64,000 nt of DNA, taken from the IMG/VR virus record IMGVR_UViG_3300042549_005813. One strand, given 5' to 3'. The stretch is from a virus. A program made the translations under genes and the position numbers. Each line of letters begins with the position of its first letter. Position 1 is the stretch's first letter. Under the pieces are notes generated by a model, which worked only from the letters and a program-made list of their open reading frames with translations, searched no databases and was not told the DNA's origin. Positions 32,956 to 43,710 of the stretch are shown here, piece after piece.

Positions 32956-33047
32956 AATGAAAAAATTATTTACAAGTATACTTGAGGCCATAGAGGCTAT
33001 CAAACAACACAGGTCGGGACCCGGCCTTAAAGGTAGATAATTACCAC

Positions 33048-33084
33048 AAGGGGTCTTGACAGACCCCTTTTTTTATTGTATAAT
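33048..33084 (+). terminator. Terminator hairpin overlapping a sigma70 promoter
   Basis: AAGGGGTC-TTGACA-GACCCCTT plus T-run; TTGACA (33056)-17-TATAAT (33079). Confidence 0.8.
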
Positions 33085-33093
33085 TGAGACATT

Positions 33094-33276
33094 ATGAAAA
33101 CTGAAAAACAATACATCAAAAAAGTACGTGTAAAAACCACGTTGGAGAATTACTACGTTTGTTCACCAGAGACTAAAGAGATTGATGGGGTACAATTCGT
33201 TTACGTAATCAAAAACATTGGTATTAGGGAAACGCCTAAATTAATGCGGAAAGAATCATTAGAATATATCAAATAA
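33094..33276 (+). CDS. Hypothetical protein
   Basis: 60-aa ORF directly after promoter. Confidence 0.55.
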   Translation: MKTEKQYIKKVRVKTTLENYYVCSPETKEIDGVQFVYVIKNIGIRETPKLMRKESLEYIK

Positions 33277-33351
33277 GGGCCGATAGCTTAATGGTAAAGC
33301 AGTGAACTCATAATTCATTGAGTCTAGGTTCAATTCCTAGTCGGCCCACCA
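33277..33351 (+). tRNA. tRNA with CAT anticodon (Ile2 or Met)
   Basis: Cloverleaf, loop CT-CAT-AA, encoded CCA. Confidence 0.85.
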
Positions 33352-33369
33352 TTTTTATTAAGGAGTATC

Positions 33370-33819
33370 ATGTCTATTACAATTAAAAACCTTGAGGCTG
33401 CATTGGCTGGAGAAAGCCAAGCGCACATCAAGTATCGTTACTTTGCAAAGATTGCTATGGAAGAAGGTCATGAGGAAATTGCCAAACATTTTTGGCACAC
33501 CGCTGACCAAGAATTACTCCATGCATGGGGTCACCTTGAGTTGTTGATTGGTAAACCAACTACCAAAGAATGCCTTGAAATGGCCATCGAAGGTGAAACA
33601 TATGAGTTTACTACAATGTATCCTAATATGAAAAAGGATGCAGAGATAGAAGGTAACAAAGAAGCAGAACGTGAAGCTGCACACCAAATTGCAGAAAGTC
33701 ACACACATGCGGAAGAATTCCGTGCAGTTCTTGCTAAGGCAGAGAAGAAATTTGCAGCATTGGCTAAGATTGAGAAACGTCATGCAGCTGCATATCAACA
33801 AGTATTGGAGAAACTATAA
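33370..33819 (+). CDS. Rubrerythrin-like diiron protein
   Basis: NLEAALAGES, ExxH motifs and AIEGETYE. Confidence 0.9.
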   Translation: MSITIKNLEAALAGESQAHIKYRYFAKIAMEEGHEEIAKHFWHTADQELLHAWGHLELLIGKPTTKECLEMAIEGETYEFTTMYPNMKKDAEIEGNKEAEREAAHQIAESHTHAEEFRAVLAKAEKKFAALAKIEKRHAAAYQQVLEKL

Positions 33820-33947
33820 TGGATCATGTATGTGTGGTTTGTGGCCATGTCCACGATGATGAAAAAGAAGGCGCATGGGATACATTACCAGATGATTTCA
33901 CTTGTCCAGAATGTGATTGTGGTAAAGAAGACTACGAGGTCCTGTGA
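33819..33947 (+). CDS. Rubredoxin
   Basis: MDHVCVVCGH...WDTLPDDFTCPEC (two CxxC); 42 aa; not in the ORF track. Confidence 0.85.
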   Translation: MDHVCVVCGHVHDDEKEGAWDTLPDDFTCPECDCGKEDYEVL

Positions 33948-34417
33948 AAGATAAATTTCGTAATGCATATATGAAAGTGGCCGAGACATTTGCAGCATTG
34001 TCCTCGGCTCGTAGACTTCATGTTGGTGCTATTGTAGTAAAGGACGACCGCATCATAAGTATTGGTTATAATGGTATGCCTTCTGGTTGGGATAACAACT
34101 GTGAAGATAAAATCTATTGTGATGATGGTGATTGTTTAGAACAACAGTTACCAAAAGAATCAGATACATGGAAAAAATATAAACTTAAAACCAAACCAGA
34201 GGTGCTTCATGCGGAAACAAATGCAATCGCTAAGTTGGCAAAGTCTACCGAATCTGGTATGGGTGCTACTATGTTTATCACCCACGCTCCATGTTTGGAC
34301 TGTGCCAAACTTATCTACCAAAGTGGTATTAGCAGTGTTCTATATCGGAACTCTTATCGGAGTGATGATGGTATCCAATTCCTACAAAAAGCAGCCGTTT
34401 GGGTGGAAAAAATCTAA
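33944..34417 (+). CDS. dCMP deaminase
   Basis: GYNG, HAETNAI and PCLDC. Confidence 0.92.
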   Translation: MKDKFRNAYMKVAETFAALSSARRLHVGAIVVKDDRIISIGYNGMPSGWDNNCEDKIYCDDGDCLEQQLPKESDTWKKYKLKTKPEVLHAETNAIAKLAKSTESGMGATMFITHAPCLDCAKLIYQSGISSVLYRNSYRSDDGIQFLQKAAVWVEKI

Positions 34418-34461
34418 TACTCCTAAATAACTGAGGGTAATTGTGCCCTTAGGAGACCAGG

Positions 34462-34971
34462 ATGATTATTCGTGTGGTTAACTGTCCAGACAAAGATTTT
34501 AAGCCCTTTGTTGAAAGAGCAGCCCAATTCTTCGCTAAAGAATTGATACCAAATACACGAATAAGAAATAATTGTATAACAGAAATTAAATTTTGTACCA
34601 AAATAACTGAATATGGTTTTGCTAGTATTGAAGATTATAATACAAAAAAACTACCTAGACAATTCCTAATAGAAATTAATCCAAATATTGGATCCAGAAG
34701 AATACTGGAAACTTTGGCACATGAAATGGTTCATGTGAAACAATACATTGATGGTGAAACGAATGATGAGTTGACCCGATGGAGAGGTAAACGGGTTGAT
34801 CCAGACAAAATAGATTATTGGGTTCAGCCATGGGAGATAGATGCTTACGGCCGTGAACCAGGACTACTTACGAAGTTTGCTATATCTGAACACTTGTGGG
34901 AAACGTTCTCCGACTTTGTTGATCCATCCGGTCCAATAAATTATAATCCGATTGCATGGAAAAAAGAATAA
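34462..34971 (+). CDS. HExxH zinc metallopeptidase-like protein
   Basis: TLAHEMVHVKQ...PWEIDAY. Confidence 0.75.
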   Translation: MIIRVVNCPDKDFKPFVERAAQFFAKELIPNTRIRNNCITEIKFCTKITEYGFASIEDYNTKKLPRQFLIEINPNIGSRRILETLAHEMVHVKQYIDGETNDELTRWRGKRVDPDKIDYWVQPWEIDAYGREPGLLTKFAISEHLWETFSDFVDPSGPINYNPIAWKKE

Positions 34972-34975
34972 AAAT

Positions 34976-35509
34976 ATGTCGCATCCAACTCAACAAGAAT
35001 TTGTTAAAAAATTATCAAACGAATTTCCACAAAATTTTAACAACATAAAGATGCTGGAGGTTGGAAGTTTAAACATCAACGGTACAATGAGAACTCATTT
35101 TACAAATTGTGAATATGTTGGTGTTGATGTGGATGCGGGTAAAGATGTTGATTTGGTTTGCGAAGGCCAGCTTGTCGACCATGCAGATGGCACATATGAC
35201 ACCACAGGTTCTTGTAATTGTTTTGAACACAATCCACATTGGATAGAAACATTTCAAAACATGTATCGTATGACCAAAAAAGATGGATTAGTTTTTATCG
35301 TAGTACCAACAACAGGTTATCCTGAACATGGTACATCCAATAAAGCACCAAATGATAGTCCTTTAACCATTGCAAAAGGTTGGGAATATTACAGTAATCT
35401 TACAGAAGAAGATTTTCGTAAAAACTTTGATATGGATAGTATGTTTCATACCTACAAGTTTGAAACAAATAAGACTCCCGAATTATTTTTTTACGGATTT
35501 AAAAAATAA
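34976..35509 (+). CDS. Class I SAM-dependent methyltransferase
   Basis: LEVGS, YVGVD and CFEH motifs; start moved to ATG 34976. Confidence 0.8.
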   Translation: MSHPTQQEFVKKLSNEFPQNFNNIKMLEVGSLNINGTMRTHFTNCEYVGVDVDAGKDVDLVCEGQLVDHADGTYDTTGSCNCFEHNPHWIETFQNMYRMTKKDGLVFIVVPTTGYPEHGTSNKAPNDSPLTIAKGWEYYSNLTEEDFRKNFDMDSMFHTYKFETNKTPELFFYGFKK

Positions 35510-35522
35510 TTTTAAAAACCGC

Positions 35523-35551
35523 TTGCCAAGACATAAAAGTTCCTATATAAT
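35523..35551 (+). promoter_or_regulatory. Sigma70 promoter driving leaderless leader-peptide transcript
   Basis: TTGCCA-17-TATAAT; ATG begins 7 nt after the -10 box. Confidence 0.8.
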
Positions 35552-35557
35552 AACACT

Positions 35558-35668
35558 ATGACAAATTTTAAACACATATCCTTTACGTTACAGCCAGAGT
35601 ATCGCACAATTAATTGTGGTGATAGCTCATGGGCGCCGACTGGGTTTTGTGTAAAGAGAGAGAACTAA
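35558..35668 (+). CDS. Putative attenuator leader peptide containing all 20 amino acids (MTNFKHISFTLQPEYRTINCGDSSWAPTGFCVKREN)
   Basis: 36 codons, 30 distinct; starts at predicted +1; 3' end overlaps the antiterminator strand; not in the ORF track. Confidence 0.7.
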   Translation: MTNFKHISFTLQPEYRTINCGDSSWAPTGFCVKREN

Positions 35669-35736
35669 TACATAAGTTCTAAAAAAAGACTCCAAACACA
35701 AGACCCTAGACCTAAAAAATCTAGGGTTTTTTGTTT
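35642..35736 (+). terminator. Attenuator: antiterminator (35642-35652 with 35696-35706) versus intrinsic terminator (35700-35710 with 35720-35730, then U-tract)
   Basis: GGGTTTTGTGT pairs with ACACAAGACCC; AAGACCCTAGA pairs with TCTAGGGTTTT; the helices share 35700-35706. Confidence 0.75.
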
Positions 35737-35819
35737 GTTGTTTCAATACAACACAGTGGTTGCCAGGTCATCGAATCTGATATACAATACACACTGTTCT
35801 TTAAAAATTTGTCGTAGTT
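35736..35819 (+). promoter_or_regulatory. tRNA-operon promoter module 1: palindrome, sigma70 promoter, boxA-like
   Basis: TGTTGT-N6-ACAACA, TTGCCA-17-TACAAT, TGTTCTTTAAAAA. Confidence 0.7.
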
Positions 35820-35822
35820 TAT

Positions 35823-35896
35823 TGGGGTATAGCATAGTGGCAGTGCTGCGGACTTTGAATCCGTAGGTCCTTGTTCGATTCAAGGTACCCCAGCCA
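35823..35896 (+). tRNA. tRNA-Gln(TTG)
   Basis: Cloverleaf, CT-TTG-AA loop, CCA. Confidence 0.9.
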
Positions 35897-35969
35897 TATA
35901 AAAGCACATTGAGAGACATAGCCGGCGTAAGACCCGGAAGTATGGTGGTTATCCAGTGTGTTTCTATAT
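35896..35969 (+). ncRNA. Unidentified hairpin RNA
   Basis: 16-bp terminal stem with G-U pairs enclosing an inner CCGG/CCGG stem. Confidence 0.45.
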
Positions 35970-36061
35970 GGAAGATGATGCAGCGGGGTTGGTCCTGCGA
36001 CTGGCCTTGAAAACCAGGTTCTCAGAAATGGGATGGGGTTCGACTCCTCCGTCTTCCGCCA
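35970..36061 (+). tRNA. tRNA-Ser(TGA), 8/4 configuration
   Basis: 8-bp acceptor GGAAGATG/CGTCTTCC, 4-bp T-stem, long variable arm, G73, CCA. Confidence 0.8.
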
Positions 36062-36066
36062 AACAT

Positions 36067-36154
36067 AGAAGGTTGCCCGAGTGGTTAAGGGAGCAGTTTG
36101 CTAAACTGTCGTTGCGAAAGCGGCGCATCGGTTCGAATCCGATACCTTCTGCCA
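36067..36154 (+). tRNA. tRNA-Ser(GCT)
   Basis: Cloverleaf with long variable arm, CCA. Confidence 0.9.
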
Positions 36155-36160
36155 AAACAT

Positions 36161-36252
36161 GCCAGCGAGACTTGACAGTCAGAGAGTCCTTATAAGACTT
36201 TTAGCGCCAGATTAGCGTTCTTGAGAGGGTTTGATTCCCTCCGCTGGTACCA
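36161..36252 (+). tRNA. Atypical tRNA with TAT anticodon (Ile?) and long variable arm
   Basis: GCCAGCG/CGCTGGT acceptor, CT-TAT-AA loop, small D-arm, ACCA end. Confidence 0.65.
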
Positions 36253-36260
36253 AATGAAAG

Positions 36261-36476
36261 ATGATTATGTGGAAAATTAAAATTGAAAATGGAATAATAT
36301 TAAATGCAAGTCCAACATTGGAAGATGCAATGAATTTTGCAAAAGGTTACGGCAAGTTTGTAACCATCACCAATGACGAAATGGAATTTGTAGGTAAATT
36401 CGGTGTTGATACTATCAAGGACGGAAAGTGTCCTGATGGAGTTGATTACACTTGGATGAAACGAAGAAATATGTAG
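36261..36476 (+). CDS. Hypothetical protein inside tRNA array
   Basis: 71-aa ORF filling the gap between tRNAs. Confidence 0.55.
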   Translation: MIMWKIKIENGIILNASPTLEDAMNFAKGYGKFVTITNDEMEFVGKFGVDTIKDGKCPDGVDYTWMKRRNM

Positions 36477-36548
36477 GTGTGACCCGAAAGGCTAGGGAGC
36501 AGATTGCAAATCTGTTACATGCAGGTTCGATTCCTGTCACCTACTCCA
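36473..36548 (+). tRNA. tRNA-Cys(GCA)
   Basis: Cloverleaf, U73, CCA. Confidence 0.9.
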
Positions 36549-36552
36549 AACA

Positions 36553-36659
36553 TGTTGTAGAAATACAACAGTACTGGTTGACAATGATTCATGGTTGTGT
36601 TATACTTCATCTATGAATTGAGAAATCAATCAAACGTTCTTTAAAAATTTGTTGTAGTT
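36553..36659 (+). promoter_or_regulatory. tRNA-operon promoter module 2: palindrome, sigma70 promoter, boxB/boxA-like
   Basis: TGTTGTA-N4-TACAACA, TTGACA-17-TATACT, ATTGA-GAAA-TCAAT hairpin, CGTTCTTTAAAAA. Confidence 0.75.
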
Positions 36660-36662
36660 AAT

Positions 36663-36737
36663 GCTCCGTTCGTCTATCGGTTAGGACGCTGCCCTTTCAA
36701 GGCGGAAAGACCAGTTCGATTCTGGTACGGAGTACCA
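36663..36737 (+). tRNA. tRNA-Glu(TTC)
   Basis: Cloverleaf, CCA. Confidence 0.9.
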
Positions 36738-36859
36738 TTTGTTTTGTTGACGTAAGCGCTTGAGTAAACGTCAACTCTAACTAACTATGTATATAAACGG
36801 TAATGCTGCAGCTAAATCCGTTGAGCATAGCAAATAGTGCGTCAGCAAAACAAATGGTA
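36733..36859 (+). ncRNA. Unidentified RNA closed by a 21-bp stem
   Basis: 36733-36753 pairs with 36839-36859, including two G-U pairs. Confidence 0.5.
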
Positions 36860-36864
36860 GTTAT

Positions 36865-36938
36865 GGGGGTATAACTTAGTGGTAAAGTAGTAGGCTTTTA
36901 ACCTATTAACCAGAGTTCGATTCTCTGTACCCCTACCA
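36865..36938 (+). tRNA. tRNA-Lys(TTT)
   Basis: Cloverleaf, CCA. Confidence 0.9.
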
Positions 36939-36947
36939 AAAAAATTT

Positions 36948-37032
36948 GGAGACACGGCAAAGTGGGAGAGTTGCGGCAGACTGTAAATCTGTTCCTTCGG
37001 GTGAGTAGGTTCGAATCTTACTGTCTCCACCA
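36948..37032 (+). tRNA. tRNA-Tyr(GTA)
   Basis: Cloverleaf with variable arm, CCA. Confidence 0.9.
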
Positions 37033-37033
37033 A

Positions 37034-37220
37034 ATCCCGTTACTACTTTTCGTTAAAGTAGCGTTTGATTAGCGATAGAGATCCGGTGGCAGAAAACCGT
37101 TAGCGAGAGAAATCTCAGGCTCTGATAGGCAGTTCCCTCTGCACACAGACATTAGAATAAAAGGGATGGACAGAGTAACTTCTCAATTAAGGGCTTGTGT
37201 GGAAACAAGTAGCTTATCCT
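37034..37220 (+). ncRNA. Unidentified structured RNA (about 185 nt)
   Basis: No ORF; several hairpins and long-range complements between two tRNAs. Confidence 0.5.
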
Positions 37221-37225
37221 AATTT

Positions 37226-37300
37226 GGTCTTAAAGTGTTCATGGACGCACATCAGCCTGTCACGCTGAAAGAAGGGGATCGTTACCCCTTGGGACCGCCA
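37226..37300 (+). tRNA. tRNA-Asp(GTC)
   Basis: Cloverleaf, G73, CCA; atypical T-loop ATCGTTA. Confidence 0.85.
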
Positions 37301-37308
37301 AGTTTTAT

Positions 37309-37383
37309 TCCAGAGTAGCACAGCGGTAGTGCAGTTGACTGTTAATCAATTGGTCGTAGGTTCGATCCCTGCCTCTGGAGCCA
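37309..37383 (+). tRNA. tRNA-Asn(GTT)
   Basis: Cloverleaf, CCA. Confidence 0.9.
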
Positions 37384-37386
37384 ATA

Positions 37387-37597
37387 CGTTCCGCTTGGTT
37401 AGCGGATACTGTGACCCGCAGGATAAGAAGTGAGGTGACTCTCAAGGGTGGTACCACTCTTACCGAAGTGGCGCTGGCAATGCGAGAACGGTCCTGGTCG
37501 GGAAGCGGGTGGAGGTCGTGCGTGATGAAAGATTAATTGGAGTAAAATCTGACCAAATTTCTGATGCGATATAATTACCGCCGCAGGACGCAGAGCA
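37387..37597 (+). ncRNA. Unidentified GC-rich structured RNA (about 210 nt)
   Basis: GC-rich compared with the genome; nested helices; flanked by tRNAs. Confidence 0.55.
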
Positions 37598-37606
37598 TTT
37601 TATTTC

Positions 37607-37680
37607 GCCCTATTAGTATAATGGCATTACACCTGTTTTGTAATCAGGTTACGGCAGTTCGATTCTGTCATGGGGCACCA
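37607..37680 (+). tRNA. tRNA-Thr(TGT)
   Basis: Cloverleaf, CCA. Confidence 0.88.
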
Positions 37681-37686
37681 GTTTTT

Positions 37687-37762
37687 CTCTCTGAAGCGTT
37701 ATCAGGTTGCGTACACGGTTTGGGGCCGTGTGGTCAAGGTTCGAATCCTTGCAGGGAGACCA
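37687..37762 (+). tRNA. tRNA-Pro(TGG)
   Basis: Cloverleaf, CCA. Confidence 0.88.
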
Positions 37763-37770
37763 GTTTTTTT

Positions 37771-37845
37771 GGGGGCAGCAGTGGGCTGCGGCGTTCCCTT
37801 GCAAGGATCGTGACTAGAAGGATTCGATTTCCTCGGCCTCCACCA
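37771..37845 (+). tRNA. tRNA-Ala(TGC), atypical D- and T-arms
   Basis: G3-U70 pair, CT-TGC-AA loop, ACCA. Confidence 0.75.
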
Positions 37846-37849
37846 ATTA

Positions 37850-37924
37850 GGTTCAGTAGCATAGTGGCAGTGCAGCATCTTCATACGGTGCGTTGTGTGA
37901 GTTCGATTCTCACCTGAACCACCA
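37850..37924 (+). tRNA. tRNA-Met(CAT), elongator-type
   Basis: Cloverleaf, paired 1-72, CCA. Confidence 0.85.
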
Positions 37925-37930
37925 AATTAT

Positions 37931-38005
37931 GGGCGATTAGTAAAATGAATATTACACAAGGCTACGAACCTTGAAGTGGGAGTTTGATTCTCTCATCGCC
38001 CTCCA
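37931..38005 (+). tRNA. tRNA-Arg(ACG)
   Basis: Cloverleaf, CCA. Confidence 0.85.
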
Positions 38006-38009
38006 ATAT

Positions 38010-38084
38010 CCTCTTGTAGCTCAATGGTAGAGCATTCGGCTGATAACCGAAAGACCTAAGGTTCGATTCCTTTCGAGAGGACCA
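38010..38084 (+). tRNA. tRNA-Ile(GAT)
   Basis: Cloverleaf, CCA. Confidence 0.88.
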
Positions 38085-38088
38085 ATAT

Positions 38089-38162
38089 ATCTCGCTGGTG
38101 TAATGGCAGCACGATGGTCTCCAAAACCATTAGTCGGGGTTCGAGTCCCTGGCGGGATGCCA
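38089..38162 (+). tRNA. tRNA-Trp(CCA)
   Basis: Cloverleaf, G73, CCA. Confidence 0.9.
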
Positions 38163-38183
38163 ATTTTAAAAAAGGTGATTAAT

Positions 38184-38669
38184 ATGAAAAATTTCAATAT
38201 AGAAGAAGTCAGACAATACCTTGCAAATCAAGGTCCTGATACCAAGGTTTATCTTGGTGCCGACTCTGAAAGAATCAGGGTAAATGGTGTTTGGTATGCT
38301 GACTATGCTCTAGCAGTTGTAGTTCATATTGATGGCCGACATGGTTGTAAGATTTTCGGATATGTTCACCGTGAATTGGATTACGACCATAAGAAAAGTA
38401 AACCTGCTATGAGGTTGATGACTGAAGTTTATAAAGTTTCAGAATTGTTCCAATCATTAGCAGAAGTGTTGGAAGATTATCATGTTGAAGTTCATCTTGA
38501 TTTGAATAAAGATGATATTCATGGTAGTTCATGTGTTGTTCAGCAAGCGATTGGTTATATTAAAGGTACATGTAACATGACACCAATGGTTAAACCAGAT
38601 GCACCTGCTGCAAGTTTCTGTGCTGACAGATTGAAAAGAATTCTGGCAGAACAGGAAGAAATTCAGTAA
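38184..38669 (+). CDS. RNase H-like YkuK (DUF458) family protein
   Basis: YLGADS, RLMTEV, EVHLD and KPDAPAASFCAD; start moved to ATG after AAGGTG. Confidence 0.8.
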   Translation: MKNFNIEEVRQYLANQGPDTKVYLGADSERIRVNGVWYADYALAVVVHIDGRHGCKIFGYVHRELDYDHKKSKPAMRLMTEVYKVSELFQSLAEVLEDYHVEVHLDLNKDDIHGSSCVVQQAIGYIKGTCNMTPMVKPDAPAASFCADRLKRILAEQEEIQ

Positions 38670-38672
38670 TAT

Positions 38673-38747
38673 GGAGAAATTAGTTTAGTGGTAAAACCAC
38701 GGGTTGTGATTCCGTTATCACCAGTTCGATCCTGGTATTTCTCCCCA
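38673..38747 (+). tRNA. tRNA-His(GTG)
   Basis: Encoded G-1:C73 pair, CCA. Confidence 0.9.
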
Positions 38748-38752
38748 AATAT

Positions 38753-38827
38753 GCCCCGTTAGCTCAGTGGTAGAGCAGTGCTTTTACACGGCGAAGGTCG
38801 GCAGTTCGAAACTGTCACGGGGTACCA
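38753..38827 (+). tRNA. tRNA-Val(TAC)
   Basis: Cloverleaf, CCA. Confidence 0.88.
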
Positions 38828-38831
38828 ACAT

Positions 38832-38907
38832 GCCAATATAGCTCAGGTGGTAGAGCAGTAGACTGAAAATCTATGTGTCAGCGGTTCGACTCCGTTTATT
38901 GGCACCA
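38832..38907 (+). tRNA. tRNA-Phe(GAA)
   Basis: Cloverleaf, CCA. Confidence 0.9.
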
Positions 38908-38912
38908 ATAAT

Positions 38913-38989
38913 ACCCAAGTGACGGAATAGGTATACGTACTTGTCTCAAAAGCAAGGTGATGTGGGCTCGAATCCCACCTTGGGTACCA
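38913..38989 (+). tRNA. tRNA-Leu(CAA), short variable loop
   Basis: Leu-type D-arm, A73, CCA; variable region only about 5 nt. Confidence 0.85.
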
Positions 38990-38990
38990 T

Positions 38991-39064
38991 GCTCTTATAG
39001 GTAAATGGCATACCACATCCATGGTAAGGATGTATCCTAAGTTCGATTCTTAGTAGGAGCACCA
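38991..39064 (+). tRNA. tRNA-Thr(GGT)
   Basis: Cloverleaf, loop AT-GGT-AA, CCA. Confidence 0.85.
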
Positions 39065-39261
39065 ACTTGTTTTAATGTTGTTAAGATAAATTCTTTTTCT
39101 TGTGTGATATATAATTCATCATCTTCAAAAGTTTTTATCTTAGTATCATATGATGGAACAAATTCAGAATCAATACAGTAGTAACCATTAGGCTCATATG
39201 TTTGATGTGCATATAATCCGTAAAACATTTCTACTGTAGGTCTTTTTGAAGTTGGTATCAT
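39037..39261 (-). CDS. Hypothetical protein antisense to the tRNA array
   Basis: 74-aa ORF filling the inter-tRNA gap; ATAAATA immediately upstream on the minus strand. Confidence 0.45.
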   Translation of the reverse strand: MIPTSKRPTVEMFYGLYAHQTYEPNGYYCIDSEFVPSYDTKIKTFEDDELYITQEKEFILTTLKQVGAPTKNRT

Positions 39262-39274
39262 GTTAGTATTTATT

Positions 39275-39351
39275 GCCCCGGTGACGGAATTGGTATACGT
39301 GTTGGTCTTAGAAGCCAAATTTTAGGAGTTCGACTCTCCTCTGGGGCACCA
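39275..39351 (+). tRNA. tRNA-Leu(TAG), short variable loop
   Basis: Leu-type D-arm, A73, CCA; variable region about 5 nt. Confidence 0.85.
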
Positions 39352-39357
39352 AACATT

Positions 39358-39432
39358 CCGGCGTTAGTATAATGGATAATACAGCGGTCTTCTACACCGT
39401 GAATGTGGGTTCGATTCCTGCACGCCGGACCA
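39358..39432 (+). tRNA. tRNA-Arg(TCT)
   Basis: Cloverleaf, CCA. Confidence 0.88.
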
Positions 39433-39450
39433 TTTAATAAGGAGTTTATT

Positions 39451-40032
39451 ATGCCAAGCGTATTCTTAGTAAGTGACACACACTTTGGCCACGCTGGTGT
39501 GTGTAGATTTCTACGTGATGATGGTGTGACGAAGCTTAGGCCATGGGATAATCCTGATGAAATGGATGAAGAAATGGTGAAGCGATGGAACGAAACAGTC
39601 AGACCAAATGATAAAGTATATCATCTTGGTGATGTTGTTATCAACCGTAAAGCAATGAGTACTCTGTATAGACTTAACGGTGACAAGGTTCTAATTCGTG
39701 GTAACCACGATATTTTTCGTGATGAAGAATACAGACAACACTTCCGTGAACTACGTGCTTATCATGTAATGAACGGAATGATTCTGTCTCATATTCCCAT
39801 TCATGAGGAAAGTCTTGGTCGTTTCGGTGTAAACATTCATGGACACCTTCATGCAAATCGGGTAAAGATTGCTAAACATGCAAAAGCTAAGCCTGAAATT
39901 GATACTAGATATCATTGTGTTTGTGTTGAACAAACAGATTTTAGACCGATTCTTTTTGAAGATGTTATCAAAAGAATTAAAGAAGAAGGTGGTGAGGTCG
40001 GTTTCCGTAATGGAAACGGACCTACCATGTGA
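39451..40032 (+). CDS. Calcineurin-like metallophosphoesterase
   Basis: SDTHFGH, HLGD, GNHD and HGHLH; start after AAGGAG SD. Confidence 0.9.
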   Translation: MPSVFLVSDTHFGHAGVCRFLRDDGVTKLRPWDNPDEMDEEMVKRWNETVRPNDKVYHLGDVVINRKAMSTLYRLNGDKVLIRGNHDIFRDEEYRQHFRELRAYHVMNGMILSHIPIHEESLGRFGVNIHGHLHANRVKIAKHAKAKPEIDTRYHCVCVEQTDFRPILFEDVIKRIKEEGGEVGFRNGNGPTM

Positions 40033-40033
40033 T

Positions 40034-40117
40034 GCGAGTATGGGGGAATTGGTAGACCCAGCAGACTTAAAATCTGCCGCCTTGTGCGTACCGGTTCGAC
40101 TCCGGTTACTCGTACCA
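40034..40117 (+). tRNA. tRNA-Leu(TAA)
   Basis: Cloverleaf with variable arm, CCA. Confidence 0.9.
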
Positions 40118-40131
40118 AATTTGGAGGATTT

Positions 40132-42081
40132 ATGAGAATTTTAGCTATACATAGTGAACATGCAACACACGATTCTTCTTGTTGCATTTATGACGGTAAG
40201 AATATTACTTATTTTTTAGAAGAACGTTATAGTGGTGAAAAACATGATGACCGATTGCAAAACTGTTTTCATAACGTATTGAAAACCAATTTGACTTTTG
40301 ATAAAATTATTGTTGGTGGTTTTCATGCAATCTGCATCCATAACAACCACAATTATGATGAATCTTTGTTCAAGAAAATTACAAAAGTTATGCCAACAAT
40401 GGCAAAAAAAGCATTAGGTACACCAATGTTTTTTACTGGTGTGAATCCAGAAAATTTAGAAAACGAACTAGACGTTCCTATTAAACATAACTTACCAGAA
40501 GAATTAATTCAATTAGAAAATTATAAAAAAATTGAAGAAGGATGGGAAAAAACATCCGAAGATGTTAGATATTTTCTATTAAATTATTATAAAAAATACA
40601 AACAATTTCCTATAATTGAATATGATAGTAATCATCACCTCAATCATGCGGCTTTATCTTTTTATAATAGTGGTTTCGATGAAGCAATAGTATTTGTTGC
40701 CGATGGTGCAGGTGAAATTTCATTTGCAACCGCAGAAACTGGAAAATATTTGACTTATAAAGAATCGGAATCTTTATATGTTGCAAATTATAAAGACCCA
40801 ATTAAACCAATTTACAAAAATTACGGTTCATATTCAGGACATGACTATTCAAAAGAAATAGAACGTTTAAATAAACAATTACCTGATTGTGAAGTGCATT
40901 TCGGTAATTACATGGGTATAGGTTTATTGTATAGTGCAGGTGCGTTACAAATTGGTGAAACAGCTGATGAAGCGGGCAAGGCTATGGGTCTTTCTTCTTA
41001 CGGAACACCAACAGGAAATATCTATACCAAAAATGATTATTTTGTTGACTGTGATAAATTCGTGTGTGAATGCCATGATTTTATACCTTTGTTTGAGCCA
41101 CCAAATGGTTATCCATCCAATTTTAAATACAAAGCTGTTGAAGAAAAAAAAGGTCTTCAACGTGGTGGACCAGAATCATTAATACTGTTGCCTGATTTAC
41201 CAGTACAGAGATTGATATCTAAAACCAATTATAAGCCTTATGCGAATTTAGCTAAAGACTTACAATTACAAACACAAGATGTGGCTGTTAATTTAATTAA
41301 AAAAGCAATAGACAAAACTGGATTAAAGAAAGTTTGTATTTGCGGTGGTTATGGAATGAACATTTTAGCTAATTCATATTACACGGAAAAGTTTCCGGAT
41401 GTTGAATTCTACTTTGAACCATTATCTATTGATAGTGGCCTTTCCATTGGCATAGCAATGCGTCATTATCGTAAAGAAACTGGTGACACAAAGATTCGTC
41501 CACAGAAAAGTATTTCATTTCATGGATTTAAACATGATGTTACATCCTATAAAGGTGTTGATGCATCAGTGAATGATATTGCAAAATTACTTTACGATAA
41601 TAAATCTGTTGCAGTATATACTGGTCTGGCTGAAGCTGGCCAACGTGCATTAGGCAACCGTTCAATTTTGTTTAATGCTCTAAATGCTGATGCGAAGGAC
41701 ATTGTTAATAAAATTAAACGTAGAGAATGGTACAGACCATTTGCTGTTGTTGTACTAGAAGAAGATGCTGAGTTATATTTCGATATGGGTAGAACCAAAA
41801 AGAATTTGTTTATGACACAATCATTTGATGTTAAAACCGATTTAATTCCTGGTGTCACTCATGTAGATAACACATGTAGAGTACAGACCGTATCCGAAGG
41901 ATACTTGTATGACCTTTTGGTTGAATTTAAAAAACTTTCGGGTCATGGGATTCTTTTAAATACCAGTTTTAACCTTGCCGGCAAACCTTTGGTAGAAACA
42001 CCAAAGCAAGCCATAGAGACTTTAAATACCTCAGTATTAGATTATCTTTGGTTTGAGGAAACAGGACAATTAATTACCTAA
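40132..42081 (+). CDS. Carbamoyltransferase (CmcH/NodU family)
   Basis: HDSS, EERYS, HHLNHA, GKAMGLSSYG, RALGNRS, KRREWYRPFA and LNTSFN; start after GGAGG SD. Confidence 0.92.
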   Translation: MRILAIHSEHATHDSSCCIYDGKNITYFLEERYSGEKHDDRLQNCFHNVLKTNLTFDKIIVGGFHAICIHNNHNYDESLFKKITKVMPTMAKKALGTPMFFTGVNPENLENELDVPIKHNLPEELIQLENYKKIEEGWEKTSEDVRYFLLNYYKKYKQFPIIEYDSNHHLNHAALSFYNSGFDEAIVFVADGAGEISFATAETGKYLTYKESESLYVANYKDPIKPIYKNYGSYSGHDYSKEIERLNKQLPDCEVHFGNYMGIGLLYSAGALQIGETADEAGKAMGLSSYGTPTGNIYTKNDYFVDCDKFVCECHDFIPLFEPPNGYPSNFKYKAVEEKKGLQRGGPESLILLPDLPVQRLISKTNYKPYANLAKDLQLQTQDVAVNLIKKAIDKTGLKKVCICGGYGMNILANSYYTEKFPDVEFYFEPLSIDSGLSIGIAMRHYRKETGDTKIRPQKSISFHGFKHDVTSYKGVDASVNDIAKLLYDNKSVAVYTGLAEAGQRALGNRSILFNALNADAKDIVNKIKRREWYRPFAVVVLEEDAELYFDMGRTKKNLFMTQSFDVKTDLIPGVTHVDNTCRVQTVSEGYLYDLLVEFKKLSGHGILLNTSFNLAGKPLVETPKQAIETLNTSVLDYLWFEETGQLIT

Positions 42082-42090
42082 AAAATATGC

Positions 42091-42119
42091 TTGACAAGAC
42101 AATGTAAAGCCTATATAAT
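42091..42119 (+). promoter_or_regulatory. Sigma70 promoter for the Gly tRNAs and groES
   Basis: TTGACA-17-TATAAT. Confidence 0.85.
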
Positions 42120-42130
42120 ACACACATGAT

Positions 42131-42205
42131 GCGGGTATGGTGCTAGTGGTAACACAAGACCTTGCCAAGGTTTAGTTGAGGGTTCGATTCCCTCTACCCG
42201 CTCCA
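42131..42205 (+). tRNA. tRNA-Gly(GCC)
   Basis: Cloverleaf, U73, CCA. Confidence 0.9.
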
Positions 42206-42215
42206 GTATAGAATT

Positions 42216-42289
42216 GCAGGGTTAGTTTAATGGTAAAACTCCATCCTTCCAAGTTGGTGTCGTGGGTTCGATTCCCACACTCTGCTCCA
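42216..42289 (+). tRNA. tRNA-Gly(TCC)
   Basis: Cloverleaf, U73, CCA. Confidence 0.88.
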
Positions 42290-42295
42290 TTTAAT

Positions 42296-42362
42296 GCGGT
42301 TTGTAATAGTACGATATAAGGTACCCCCTTATGTTAACTGAGCAAAGCAGTAGACCGCTCCA
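42296..42362 (+). ncRNA. Minimal tRNA-Gly-like RNA
   Basis: GCGGTTT/AGACCGC-TCCA acceptor, anticodon-like stem, no canonical D- or T-loop. Confidence 0.55.
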
Positions 42363-42375
42363 TTTTGAGGACACT

Positions 42376-42621
42376 ATGAATATTAAACCCTTGCATGATA
42401 AAGTATTGATTGAACGTATTGAGAATGTCAAAGAGACCGCTTCAGGCATCATCCTAAAACATTCCGAAGATCCAGATAAAGCAAGAGTACTTGCAGTTGG
42501 TCCGGATGTTACAGAAGTCCAGGTCGGTGATGTGGTTCAACCAGACTGGGGCAAGGCCGCAGCAGTGCAAGATTATTTCGTGGTGAAGATTGAAGACATA
42601 GCTTACATCTACGGAGAGTAA
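42376..42621 (+). CDS. groES: Co-chaperonin GroES-like
   Basis: IKPLHDKVLI, TASGII, VLAVGP and VQVGD; start after GAGG SD. Confidence 0.9.
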   Translation: MNIKPLHDKVLIERIENVKETASGIILKHSEDPDKARVLAVGPDVTEVQVGDVVQPDWGKAAAVQDYFVVKIEDIAYIYGE

Positions 42622-42623
42622 AC

Positions 42624-42860
42624 ATGTCTGCTGGTGGTAAAGGTTCTAGTCCAAGGCCGTTTAGTGTTTCACAGGAAACATTTGGTAATAACTACGACAA
42701 TATTTTTAGAAAAAAATCACCAAAAGAATTAGAAGAAGATAAAATCGAACAAGAAGAATTTGATAGAATCTTAGAGGAAAATCTAGAACGTCAAAGACGG
42801 GAAAAGTCTTTAGATGCCATGGTGGCAGAAAATCAAAGATTAGGTTTATACGACAACTAA
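42624..42860 (+). CDS. Hypothetical protein
   Basis: GGKGSSPRP small phage protein; GGAG SD. Confidence 0.6.
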   Translation: MSAGGKGSSPRPFSVSQETFGNNYDNIFRKKSPKELEEDKIEQEEFDRILEENLERQRREKSLDAMVAENQRLGLYDN

Positions 42861-42863
42861 TAT

Positions 42864-42936
42864 AGCGGGTTGGTGAAATGGTATCACAGTGGGCTCATAA
42901 TCCTCAGTTCCGGTTCGACTCCGTGACCCGCAACCA
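42864..42936 (+). tRNA. tRNA-fMet(CAT), initiator-like
   Basis: 1-72 mismatch, GGG on the 5' side of the anticodon stem, CCA. Confidence 0.75.
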
Positions 42937-43710
42937 TTAATCCTTATACACTTCATATATAAATTCCGCTTCAGGAATTCTTGTCTTTGTATTCTTACTA
43001 CCCAATACAACAACCACTCTATCACCTTCACTTGTGTCTAATAGAATCGTGATACATCCACCAGATTCATTTATAAAACCAGTCTTACTGACTATTATAT
43101 TTTGATAGTGTCCTATCATTGGGTTTGTGTTACGAAAAACAAACCATTTCTTCTTTACTTTTATTTTTATTTCTAACTTGCGGCTAGCATAAACTATATT
43201 GCTGTATTCTGCCGCAGCTTTTGTCAACGTCACCAATTCTCTTGCGGTGCTAACATTTCTTTCGTCTAATCCTGTTGGTTCATAAACAATGGATTTTTCC
43301 ATTTGTAATTTTTTCAACTTATCATTCATAGCCTTGACACAGGCCGGCATACCACCAGGATAATGTTCACATAGTGTATATGCGGCTCTATTACTACTGT
43401 GTATCATGGTCATAGAAACCAAATTTGCTCGACTGACAACTTGGTTTTTTACTGGCAACCTGTCTCGTATTTTTGTAGTCATTGTCAACATCTGGCTCAT
43501 GTTAGGATTCGTATCCATCACAACCATGACAGTTAACAATTTTGTTATACTGGCAATAGGCCTAATCTTATCATAATCTTTACCACCTAATATAGTGCCA
43601 TTTAAATCCGACACAATCCAGGATTTGGCTGTGAAGAATTCTGCTTTGACTGGTGATTGACCAAGAAGTATGGTGAAAAATAACAGAGTAATAAAAATTC
43701 TATATAACAA
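42937..43710 (-). CDS. D-alanyl-D-alanine endo/carboxypeptidase (peptidase S11, PbpG-like)
   Basis: Signal peptide; SITK (SxxK), SSN (SxN) and KTG motifs. Confidence 0.9.
   Translation of the reverse strand: MLYRIFITLLFFTILLGQSPVKAEFFTAKSWIVSDLNGTILGGKDYDKIRPIASITKLLTVMVVMDTNPNMSQMLTMTTKIRDRLPVKNQVVSRANLVSMTMIHSSNRAAYTLCEHYPGGMPACVKAMNDKLKKLQMEKSIVYEPTGLDERNVSTARELVTLTKAAAEYSNIVYASRKLEIKIKVKKKWFVFRNTNPMIGHYQNIIVSKTGFINESGGCITILLDTSEGDRVVVVLGSKNTKTRIPEAEFIYEVYKD

Follow-up and report, generated by a model that had tools for sequence, protein, structure and literature searches.

A conserved leader ORF covering nearly all amino acids heads the tRNA array of freshwater T4-like phages and may be part of a ribosome-dependent attenuator

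The stretch of viral DNA analyzed here (IMG/VR record IMGVR_UViG_3300042549_005813; 64,000 nucleotides, hereafter called the window) comes from an uncultured T4-like phage of fresh water. It has a GC content of about 37% and was found in lake-water metagenome runs. Its DNA polymerase shows 50% identity to the enzymes of Synechococcus myoviruses. Ahead of a tRNA array, the window carries a promoter, a short open reading frame (ORF), several RNA segments with alternative pairing partners, an intrinsic terminator and a second promoter:

35523-35551, plus strand: promoter P1 (TTGCCA-17-TATAAT), near-consensus sigma-70 type, agreeing with 11 of 12 consensus positions
35558-35668, plus strand: leader ORF of 36 codons with all 20 amino acids; its homologues show in-frame indels, ATG or GTG starts and synonymous variation
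about 35571-35582, plus strand: region 1 (around codons 5-9), candidate anti-antiterminator pairing with region 2 in minimum-free-energy folds
35594-35632, plus strand: central hairpin inside the ORF (codons 13-25), seen in the minimum-free-energy fold only
35642-35652, plus strand: region 2 (codons 29-32), putative antiterminator strand, which pairs and covaries with region 3
35661-35680, plus strand: small hairpin whose loop contains the stop codon, predicted in the minimum-free-energy fold
35693-35710, plus strand: region 3, 5' arm of the terminator (35696-35706 also pairs with region 2), supported by fold and covariation
35720-35740, plus strand: region 4, 3' arm of the terminator and T-tract, supported by fold and covariation
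35760-35788, plus strand: second promoter P2 (TTGCCA-17-TACAAT), found by promoter scan, accompanied at 35795-35807 by a boxA-like element, TGTTCTTTAAAAA; most relatives keep both
35823-42936, plus strand: tRNA array of 26 tRNAs called by ARAGORN, with tRNA-Gln first (35823-35896); the presumed regulated genes

Both promoters had been placed at these positions by an earlier, sequence-only reading of this DNA, and the scans for consensus elements recovered P1 as well as P2, the latter just past the terminator. That reading had further claimed that the tRNA region covers all 20 amino acids, which holds for 19 of them: Ala is absent from the ARAGORN tRNAs and is represented only by a cloverleaf-like candidate tRNA-Ala (UGC anticodon, G3:U70) at about 37770-37846, which ARAGORN missed. 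One more ARAGORN tRNA lies upstream of the array, at 33277. Rfam matched 26 of the 27 ARAGORN calls, missing the one at 36161-36252, and added a tRNA-Ser(UGA)-like sequence at 35970-36057.

A recount of the leader ORF agrees with the earlier description of its unusual content: all 20 amino acids occur within 36 codons, 19 kinds are reached by codon 26, Val follows as codon 32, and 30 distinct codons are used. Clustered or tandem regulatory codons are absent from the leader, which contains no runs. Given the amino acid composition of the window's own proteome, the chance of finding all 20 kinds falls from 1.4e-3 in 36 residues to 2.2e-4 in 31 and 1.7e-5 in 27; that of at least 19 kinds in 26 codons is 3.7e-4. 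When the stop-free segments of 36 amino acids in all six frames of the window were examined, all 20 kinds were present at only 3 independent places among 31,603 segments. About one such ORF per 64 kb is nevertheless to be expected from exhaustive scanning, so that the window alone cannot settle whether the composition reflects chance or design.

The leader has no match in Rfam (cmscan of 33000-43500 at E up to 1), Pfam, PHROGs or the ESM Atlas. In the same cmscan interval and at the same threshold, only tRNA-type matches and weak Plastid-ycf2 matches on tRNA genes were obtained, and no covariance model of a T-box riboswitch or of another Rfam cis-regulatory leader was matched. Searches of the region with blastn and megablast against 50,697 phage records returned only tRNA-level or unrelated matches, and tblastn of the peptide against cultured phages gave a single unconvincing match (E = 0.2); consequently, no cultured relative is available. 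Relatives were instead gathered via the neighboring methyltransferase gene, by peptide alignment, by an HMM search of 1.8 billion protein representatives, and from the genomic context of matches, a metagenome scan and a degenerate DNA pattern scan. The metagenome scan contributed 6 loci only, mostly of types already known. As the patterns used to find members demanded Tyr, Thr, Cys and Trp codons, the retention of these four residues is biased. The resulting family comprises 46 distinct peptides of 31-42 amino acids, all from uncultured freshwater (lake) T4-like phages. In three more distant relatives (L016-L018), no leader was found after the methyltransferase gene or ahead of the tRNAs contained in the locus.

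Several features of the family indicate that the ORF is protein-coding. The reading frame is open in every member although the sequence is AT-rich, the lengths of indels are always divisible by 3, and every member has an ATG or GTG start about 12-14 codons before an invariant Tyr codon. Between the window and the group of 80% identity, 8 of 12 core substitutions fall in third positions (counted manually from the alignment). Synonymous alternatives occur at many codons (TGT/TGC, GGT/GGC, CAG/CAA, ACG/ACA), and the rare changes within the GAG-TAT-CGC-ACA block are all synonymous; the codons TAT, CGC, AAT and GAT never vary. The peptides share a conserved core in the order H-K-P, Q-P-E-Y-R-T, N-C-G/A-D and S-W, whereas variability is highest in the C-terminal 6-12 residues and the stop codon has no fixed position. 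As judged from these alignments, the leader ORF is coding and conserved and not a product of chance.

The RNA from 35558 to 35740 (183 nt) is at the same time predicted to fold stably, with -50.4 kcal/mol and z = -4.75 relative to shuffles. This stability and the nucleotide-invariant codons could be taken to indicate a non-coding structured RNA within which the ORF is fortuitous. Such an explanation receives hardly any credence here, as it is opposed by the frame that is open in every member, the in-frame indels, the starts accompanied by purine tracts, the third-position-biased variation and the lack of an Rfam match at E up to 1. The peptide might alternatively act as a sensor of the TnaC, SecM or ErmCL type, in which a small molecule or factor induces a nascent-peptide arrest that controls the terminator. 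Trp, Asp and Pro are indeed part of the conserved core and the ORF overlaps the switch, but the C-terminal part, which would occupy the peptidyl-transferase center at arrest, is precisely the variable one, no conserved C-terminal arrest motif was found in the leader family, and core residues are exchanged or relocated in diverged members. Arrest-based sensing is consequently considered very unlikely.

The -35 and -10 boxes of P1 are retained across the aligned relatives, with the L101 type lacking an obvious -35 box. Most members possess a leader of 30-33 nt with a Shine-Dalgarno-like purine tract of the AGRAAG type (AGAAAG, AGGAAG, AGAGAG) before the start codon. This leader is lost only in the subgroup of the window (peptides starting with M-T/K/N-N), in which the ATG follows the -10 box after 6 nt; in the window itself, the ATG begins at 35558, seven bases past the end of the box, and coincides with the predicted +1. 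In the L101 subgroup, only 3 nt separate the -10 box and the ATG. The message had been proposed to be leaderless. The 6-nt spacing fits this proposal for the window, whereas the 30-33-nt leader of most relatives does not, and leaderless initiation is best regarded as a derived feature of one subgroup rather than a family-wide property, because most relatives keep their leader. It is inferred from the spacing between the -10 box and the ATG, without a mapped transcription start.

The predicted fold of the 183-nt RNA consists of a helix between regions 1 and 2 (35572-35582 with 35642-35652), the central hairpin, the stop-codon hairpin and a 17-bp terminator hairpin with its T-tract. The terminator hairpin (35693-35737, followed by the T-tract) has a computed energy of -17.6 kcal/mol. 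A simple hairpin scan with a loop limit of 8 nt had listed this stem on the minus strand only, because the 9-nt loop of the plus-strand hairpin exceeds the limit. In the alignment of closer relatives, 99.5% of terminator stem cells are paired and 5 pairs are changed on both sides; 41 cells carry two-sided changes, compared to 14.2 +/- 2.5 after shuffling, a value reached in 0 of 500 shuffles.

The segment 35642-35652 can form 11 bp, including one G-U pair, with 35696-35706 (-17.8 kcal/mol). Since this helix uses the 5' arm of the terminator, it excludes the terminator, as had been described from the sequence. In the set of close relatives (A3), the region 2:3 helix is invariant, which makes that alignment uninformative with regard to covariation; covariation appeared only after diverged types were added, giving 20 types in total. 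In each of 20 combinations of region 2 and region 3 from all subfamilies, the two strands can form 10-13 bp (-12.1 to -18.7 kcal/mol), and 91.3% of the cells in the alignment of these diverse types are paired. Three pairs are changed on both sides (U-A to G-C in 3 types, G-C to A-U in 4 and U-A to C-G in 2), yielding 9 two-sided cells versus 2.7 +/- 1.2 after shuffling (0/500 shuffles). Sliding the partner strand by 1-3 columns as a control reduced pairing to 20-71%. The L078, L171, L172 and L191 types have a U-run in region 2 and an A-run in region 3 that each fall one base short of those in the other types. The nucleotides of region 2 are kept even where the peptide encoded there differs. 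When the 3' part of the ORF was set against the basal arm of the terminator, nearly all types ranked within the top 0-0.6% relative to 3000 random 15-mers of the window. Both helices of the switch, the terminator and its competitor, accordingly covary in the relatives.

The evidence for the helix between regions 1 and 2 is of a different kind. It is present in the minimum-free-energy folds of 10 of 10 representative types, with duplex energies of -9.4 kcal/mol in the window and -6.3 to -15.7 kcal/mol in relatives, and 93.3% of its cells are paired. The changes observed in it (CAT/CAC/CGC, AAA/AAG) are one-sided and wobble-compatible; no two-sided change, and hence no covariation, was found among the aligned relatives. 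This predicted helix fits an attenuator model but is unproven. The AAGTTCT arm of the stop-codon hairpin is present in most relatives and deleted in the types with 31 amino acids. The central hairpin at 35594-35632 was rejected as a conserved structure because the variation in the alignment tracks codons, not pairs.

The relation of this switch to the tRNA genes differs between members of the family. A tRNA gene (Gln or Ser) lies just downstream of the leader in every locus scanned for tRNAs. In most types, the window included, P2 and the boxA-like element are located between the terminator and this first tRNA, so that tRNA synthesis need not depend on the switch. P2 is absent from types with 31 amino acids (L185, L186, L079, L067, L078, L171 and L105); among the types of 31-32 amino acids that were checked, L172 is the exception that is not without P2. 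In the loci that were read (L065-type, L078 and L079), about 6-10 nt separate the T-tract from the beginning of the tRNA. Without P2, a transcript started at P1 can reach the array only by passing the terminator, as in the classical attenuator layout, and in these relatives the predicted switch can be the sole gate of the array. The sequence-only reading would have been refuted if all tRNA transcription started at the downstream promoter. In the types lacking P2, no such promoter is seen; in the window, a bypass of the switch remains possible.

These observations also bear on a simpler explanation, according to which the leader simply encodes a small protein between a promoter and a terminator of its own and precedes a tRNA array by coincidence, the pairing of regions 2 and 3 playing no part in regulation. 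Such a gene would be expected to show the strong promoter and terminator, the coding signature and the conserved peptide that are seen here, and in most genomes P2 supplies the tRNAs with a promoter of their own. However, compensatory changes maintain precisely the helix that is mutually exclusive with the terminator, no promoter separates the terminator from the first tRNA in the 31-amino-acid types, the extreme composition of the peptide is kept by relocation of residues, and the element heads a tRNA array wherever it was scanned for one. A chance neighbor of the tRNA genes is therefore judged quite unlikely.

Amino acid completeness was examined across the entire family. All 20 amino acids are present in 36 of the 46 peptides, 19 in 8 and 18 in 2, so the near-complete coverage noted for the window is kept by related short ORFs despite their divergence. 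Absences include Ala and Arg (L101/L125), Val (L183) and Leu (L042). The part of the ORF in which a stalled ribosome would leave region 2 accessible, here termed the sensing zone, was taken to extend up to the A-site codon whose P-site is 11 nt before region 2, a limit based on the known position of the ribosomal helicase. It comprises 24-30 codons and 17-20 kinds of amino acid, compared to an expected mean of about 14; for the 41 fully sequenced peptides, 17 kinds were counted in 4, 18 in 17, 19 in 17 and 20 in 3. Sole copies of His, Gln, Glu, Arg, Asn, Asp and Val relocate rather than vanish. For example, in the L079/L186, L172 and L096 types the only His has left the H-K-P site for a Y-H-T site, and in P0009/L078 it is found at Q-H-N-Y instead. 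L190 carries the Gln lost in the L003 type one codon further on, L172 has it at another site, and Glu, Asn, Asp, Arg and Val have moved in the P0009, L083, L096 and L101 types.

A tree-aware test was based on a neighbor-joining tree on which 265 events were placed by parsimony. When the derived residues were shuffled among events, 13.9 +/- 5.7 complete peptides were obtained (maximum 29), and shuffling within columns gave 19.2 +/- 5.4 (maximum 33). The observed number of 36 was reached in 0 of 5000 shuffles under either null. Similarly, the mean number of kinds per peptide is 19.74, compared to 18.77 +/- 0.24 for events and 19.08 +/- 0.19 for columns. The tree and the events are derived from one short alignment, the search patterns favored four residues, and seven kinds are fixed by RNA strands in the family consensus; within these limits, the tests show that completeness is retained beyond phylogeny and site preferences. 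Codon and wobble-class diversity, given the peptide, are elevated as well (mean z of +1.5 and +1.9, respectively), but this excess is modest, could be explained by relaxed codon bias and is suggestive only.

Completeness might still be incidental to an attenuator that is coupled to translation in a more general manner, with a switch that reports only whether ribosomes translate, or with a peptide or terminated 180-nt RNA that acts in trans. In the family consensus, seven kinds of amino acid are dictated by RNA strands (region 1: H, K and P; region 2: G, F, C and V), codon runs are missing, the order of the core is conserved and, as described above, four of its codons are invariant. In support of a function in trans, contigs from four lake metatranscriptome runs cover the leader (e.g., 35597-35732 and 35448-35744), with separate contigs from 35749-35770 onward; these contigs, one of them with a loose end, show neither transcript ends, levels nor strand. 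Attenuator-derived sRNAs and functional leader peptides are documented (PMC7968998). Incidental completeness is opposed by the diverged P0009, L079, L096, L172 and L083 types, which rearrange the core yet stay complete, and by the tree-aware shuffles, none of which attained the observed value; a function of the peptide is not supported by any Pfam, PHROG or Atlas relative. On balance, this explanation is considered unlikely without being dismissed. The order of core residues is kept more strongly than the sensing of composition needs, and this unexplained order, together with the invariant codons, would be compatible with an additional role of the peptide or the terminated RNA.

The interpretation favored here, with moderate confidence and on the strength of comparative and computational evidence, is that 35523-35740 constitutes a ribosome-dependent leader-peptide attenuator which heads the phage tRNA array and samples nearly every aminoacyl-tRNA. 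The coupling itself, the direction of the response and the leaderless start are inferred. In this model, transcription from P1 would yield a short message, and its 36-codon ORF would be translated behind the advancing RNA polymerase. A ribosome stalled within approximately the first 26 codons would leave region 2 (35642-35652) free to pair with the emerging region 3 (35696-35706), the terminator would not form, and RNA polymerase would read through to the tRNA genes. With smooth decoding, or without translation of the ORF, region 2 would be hidden under the ribosome or paired with region 1; the terminator would then form from regions 3 and 4, and the transcript would end at about 35737. The stop codon is located 16-22 nt past region 2 in the longer types, where a terminating ribosome is consequently expected to leave region 2 uncovered, and within 4-5 nt of it in five fully sequenced types with 31 amino acids.

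With 17-20 amino acids in 24-30 codons and hardly any repeats, such a switch would report a shortage of nearly any aminoacyl-tRNA instead of responding to a single amino acid. The absence of codon runs implies low sensitivity to partial starvation, as only a near-complete loss of a tRNA should stall the ribosome at a single codon. The design consequently fits the near-complete loss of a tRNA species better than a graded limitation of amino acids. Two restrictions apply to the general sensor of tRNA depletion that had been proposed from the sequence. The ORF, the terminator, the region 2:3 helix and completeness are all conserved as that proposal would have it, but Val, and in many types Gly, occurs only in or after region 2; being encoded by the antiterminator strand itself, these residues are not sensed in the direction of read-through, and a stall at Val (often also Gly) in or after region 2 should favor termination. 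Moreover, Met occurs only as the start codon in the type of the window and in several others, so that sensing of literally every amino acid gives way to the 17-20 kinds of the sensing zone.

A more far-reaching version of the model is offered tentatively, as a possibility that cannot yet be called probable. In this version, selection would act on completeness itself: the leader would serve as a "pangram" test message that is decoded largely by the phage's own tRNAs, and the resulting feedback loop would hold the tRNA pool at a set point. It would at the same time act as an alarm against anticodon nucleases that calls up replacement tRNAs, and as the only gate of the array where P2 is missing.

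The favored attenuator model places the phage element among several known regulatory systems. The trpL, hisL, pheL, thrL, leuL, ilvL and pheST (pheM) attenuators likewise possess a short promoter-proximal ORF, segments pairing as 1:2, 2:3 and 3:4, and an intrinsic terminator, and in both cases the position of the ribosome on the ORF is expected to choose the fold. Like the phage element would, pheM-pheST controls a gene of the translation apparatus. However, amino-acid attenuators contain runs of one or a few regulatory codons, whereas the phage element presents 17-20 kinds about once each in its sensitive zone. Their downstream genes code for biosynthetic enzymes or synthetases (trp/phe-type) instead of tRNAs, and the phage element is further set apart by being phage-encoded, by its conserved peptide core and by its lack of an Rfam leader match. 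The absence of clustered regulatory codons and the presence of tRNA genes in a phage as the target thus distinguish it from the trp/his/phe-type attenuators that it otherwise would resemble in its mode of action.

Leaders responding to translation stress are also related in principle. In ermC-type, msrD, yxjB/tlrB and PA5471.1-mexXY leaders, a stalled ribosome relieves a downstream terminator (PMC10314930, PMC6851288, PMC13041342). The signal is, as proposed for the phage element, the state of translation and not one metabolite, but these leaders respond to drug-bound ribosomes or arrest motifs and control resistance genes, while the phage element has no evident arrest motif and a tRNA target. 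T-box riboswitches similarly link the supply of charged tRNA to the choice between terminator and antiterminator before genes of the translation apparatus. They bind uncharged tRNA directly, without an ORF, and are specific for one tRNA, unlike the phage element with its coding ORF and no T-box match. Finally, rnTrpL/peTrpL of Sinorhizobium illustrates that a leader RNA released by termination, and likewise the peptide encoded by it, may have functions in trans, which could explain the conserved core of the phage peptide; this system is Trp-specific and bacterial, and no trans function is known for the phage element. The earlier reading knew of no described equivalent, and a literature search likewise turned up neither leader-peptide control of tRNA genes nor a leader with all amino acids.

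To our knowledge, the regulation of phage tRNA genes is largely unknown. For the phage described here, it is probable that more tRNA is made when ribosomes decode slowly, albeit without experimental evidence of translation, of termination at 35737 or of regulated read-through. Since the promoter is of the sigma-70 type and the terminator is intrinsic, the 230-bp element should lend itself to tests in E. coli or cell-free systems, with no need for the uncultured host. If the model is correct, it would extend classical attenuation from one amino acid to an audit of the whole decoding capacity, and, if this logic holds, the element would provide synthetic biology with a compact natural sensor of tRNA supply. 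For phages, it would directly link the tRNA arrays to codon-usage mismatch and to tRNA-targeting defense.

Within the leader ORF, a 36-codon frame in the putative attenuator ahead of the tRNA array, the 12-nt block at 35597-35608 (GAGTATCGCACA) is nearly unchanged at the nucleotide level across 28 distinct ORF sequences. Only three synonymous changes occur in it, in the Glu and Thr codons, while its Tyr TAT and Arg CGC codons are constant. No pairing strand that would account for this near-invariance was found.

The surroundings of the leader contain the following features:

33056-33084 (+), consensus promoter matching 12/12 positions, upstream of the 60-codon ORF
33094-33276 (+), 60-codon ORF, its last base directly before tRNA-Met (33277)
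within 33370-33947 (+), Rubrerythrin gene (Pfam match) and an adjoining 42-aa ORF
35760-35812 and 36578-36650 (+), promoter module present twice, each time with boxA-like TGTTCTTTAAAAA behind it, ahead of tRNA genes
35970-36057 (+), tRNA-Ser with UGA anticodon and long arm, without ARAGORN call
36161-36252 (+), ‘tRNA-Ile(TAT)’ called by ARAGORN, 92 nt, long variable arm
37770-37846 (+), candidate tRNA-Ala, called neither by ARAGORN nor by Rfam

Between 33056 and 33351, no terminator separates the 60-codon ORF from tRNA-Met. The Rubrerythrin gene and the 42-aa ORF are flanked by tRNA-Met and a dCMP deaminase gene; the latter ORF contains CxxC motifs and, judged by eye from its sequence, appears rubredoxin-like.

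Near the array start, the tRNA-Ser is matched by Rfam only below threshold, as tRNA-Sec-like (35.3 bits), and tRNA-Ser(TGA) is called at the same place in relatives. The ‘tRNA-Ile(TAT)’, which has no match to the Rfam tRNA model at E up to 1, is kept in relatives, adjoining tRNA-Ser(GCT). In the candidate tRNA-Ala, the acceptor stem has 7 bp and includes G3:U70, the anticodon loop carries UGC, and both a T-arm and a CCA end are present, but the variable region is enlarged; this candidate folds into a cloverleaf, but shuffles do no worse in energy.

In two more distant relative loci, L016 and L017, the gene for the methyltransferase, an enzyme here 62% identical, is directly followed by a gene for an RNA polymerase omega/Rpb6-family protein of 72-77 aa (Pfam PF01192, E about 1e-10):

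L016:4543-4758, omega/Rpb6-family gene
L017:4555-4785, omega/Rpb6-family gene

An omega subunit carried by a phage is unusual. L017 also exhibits the promoter and boxA-like module at the head of its tRNA block (bases 51-198). Because this module is repeated before tRNA genes and recurs in L017, the sequences suggest that these tRNA operons may be subject to rrn-type antitermination.
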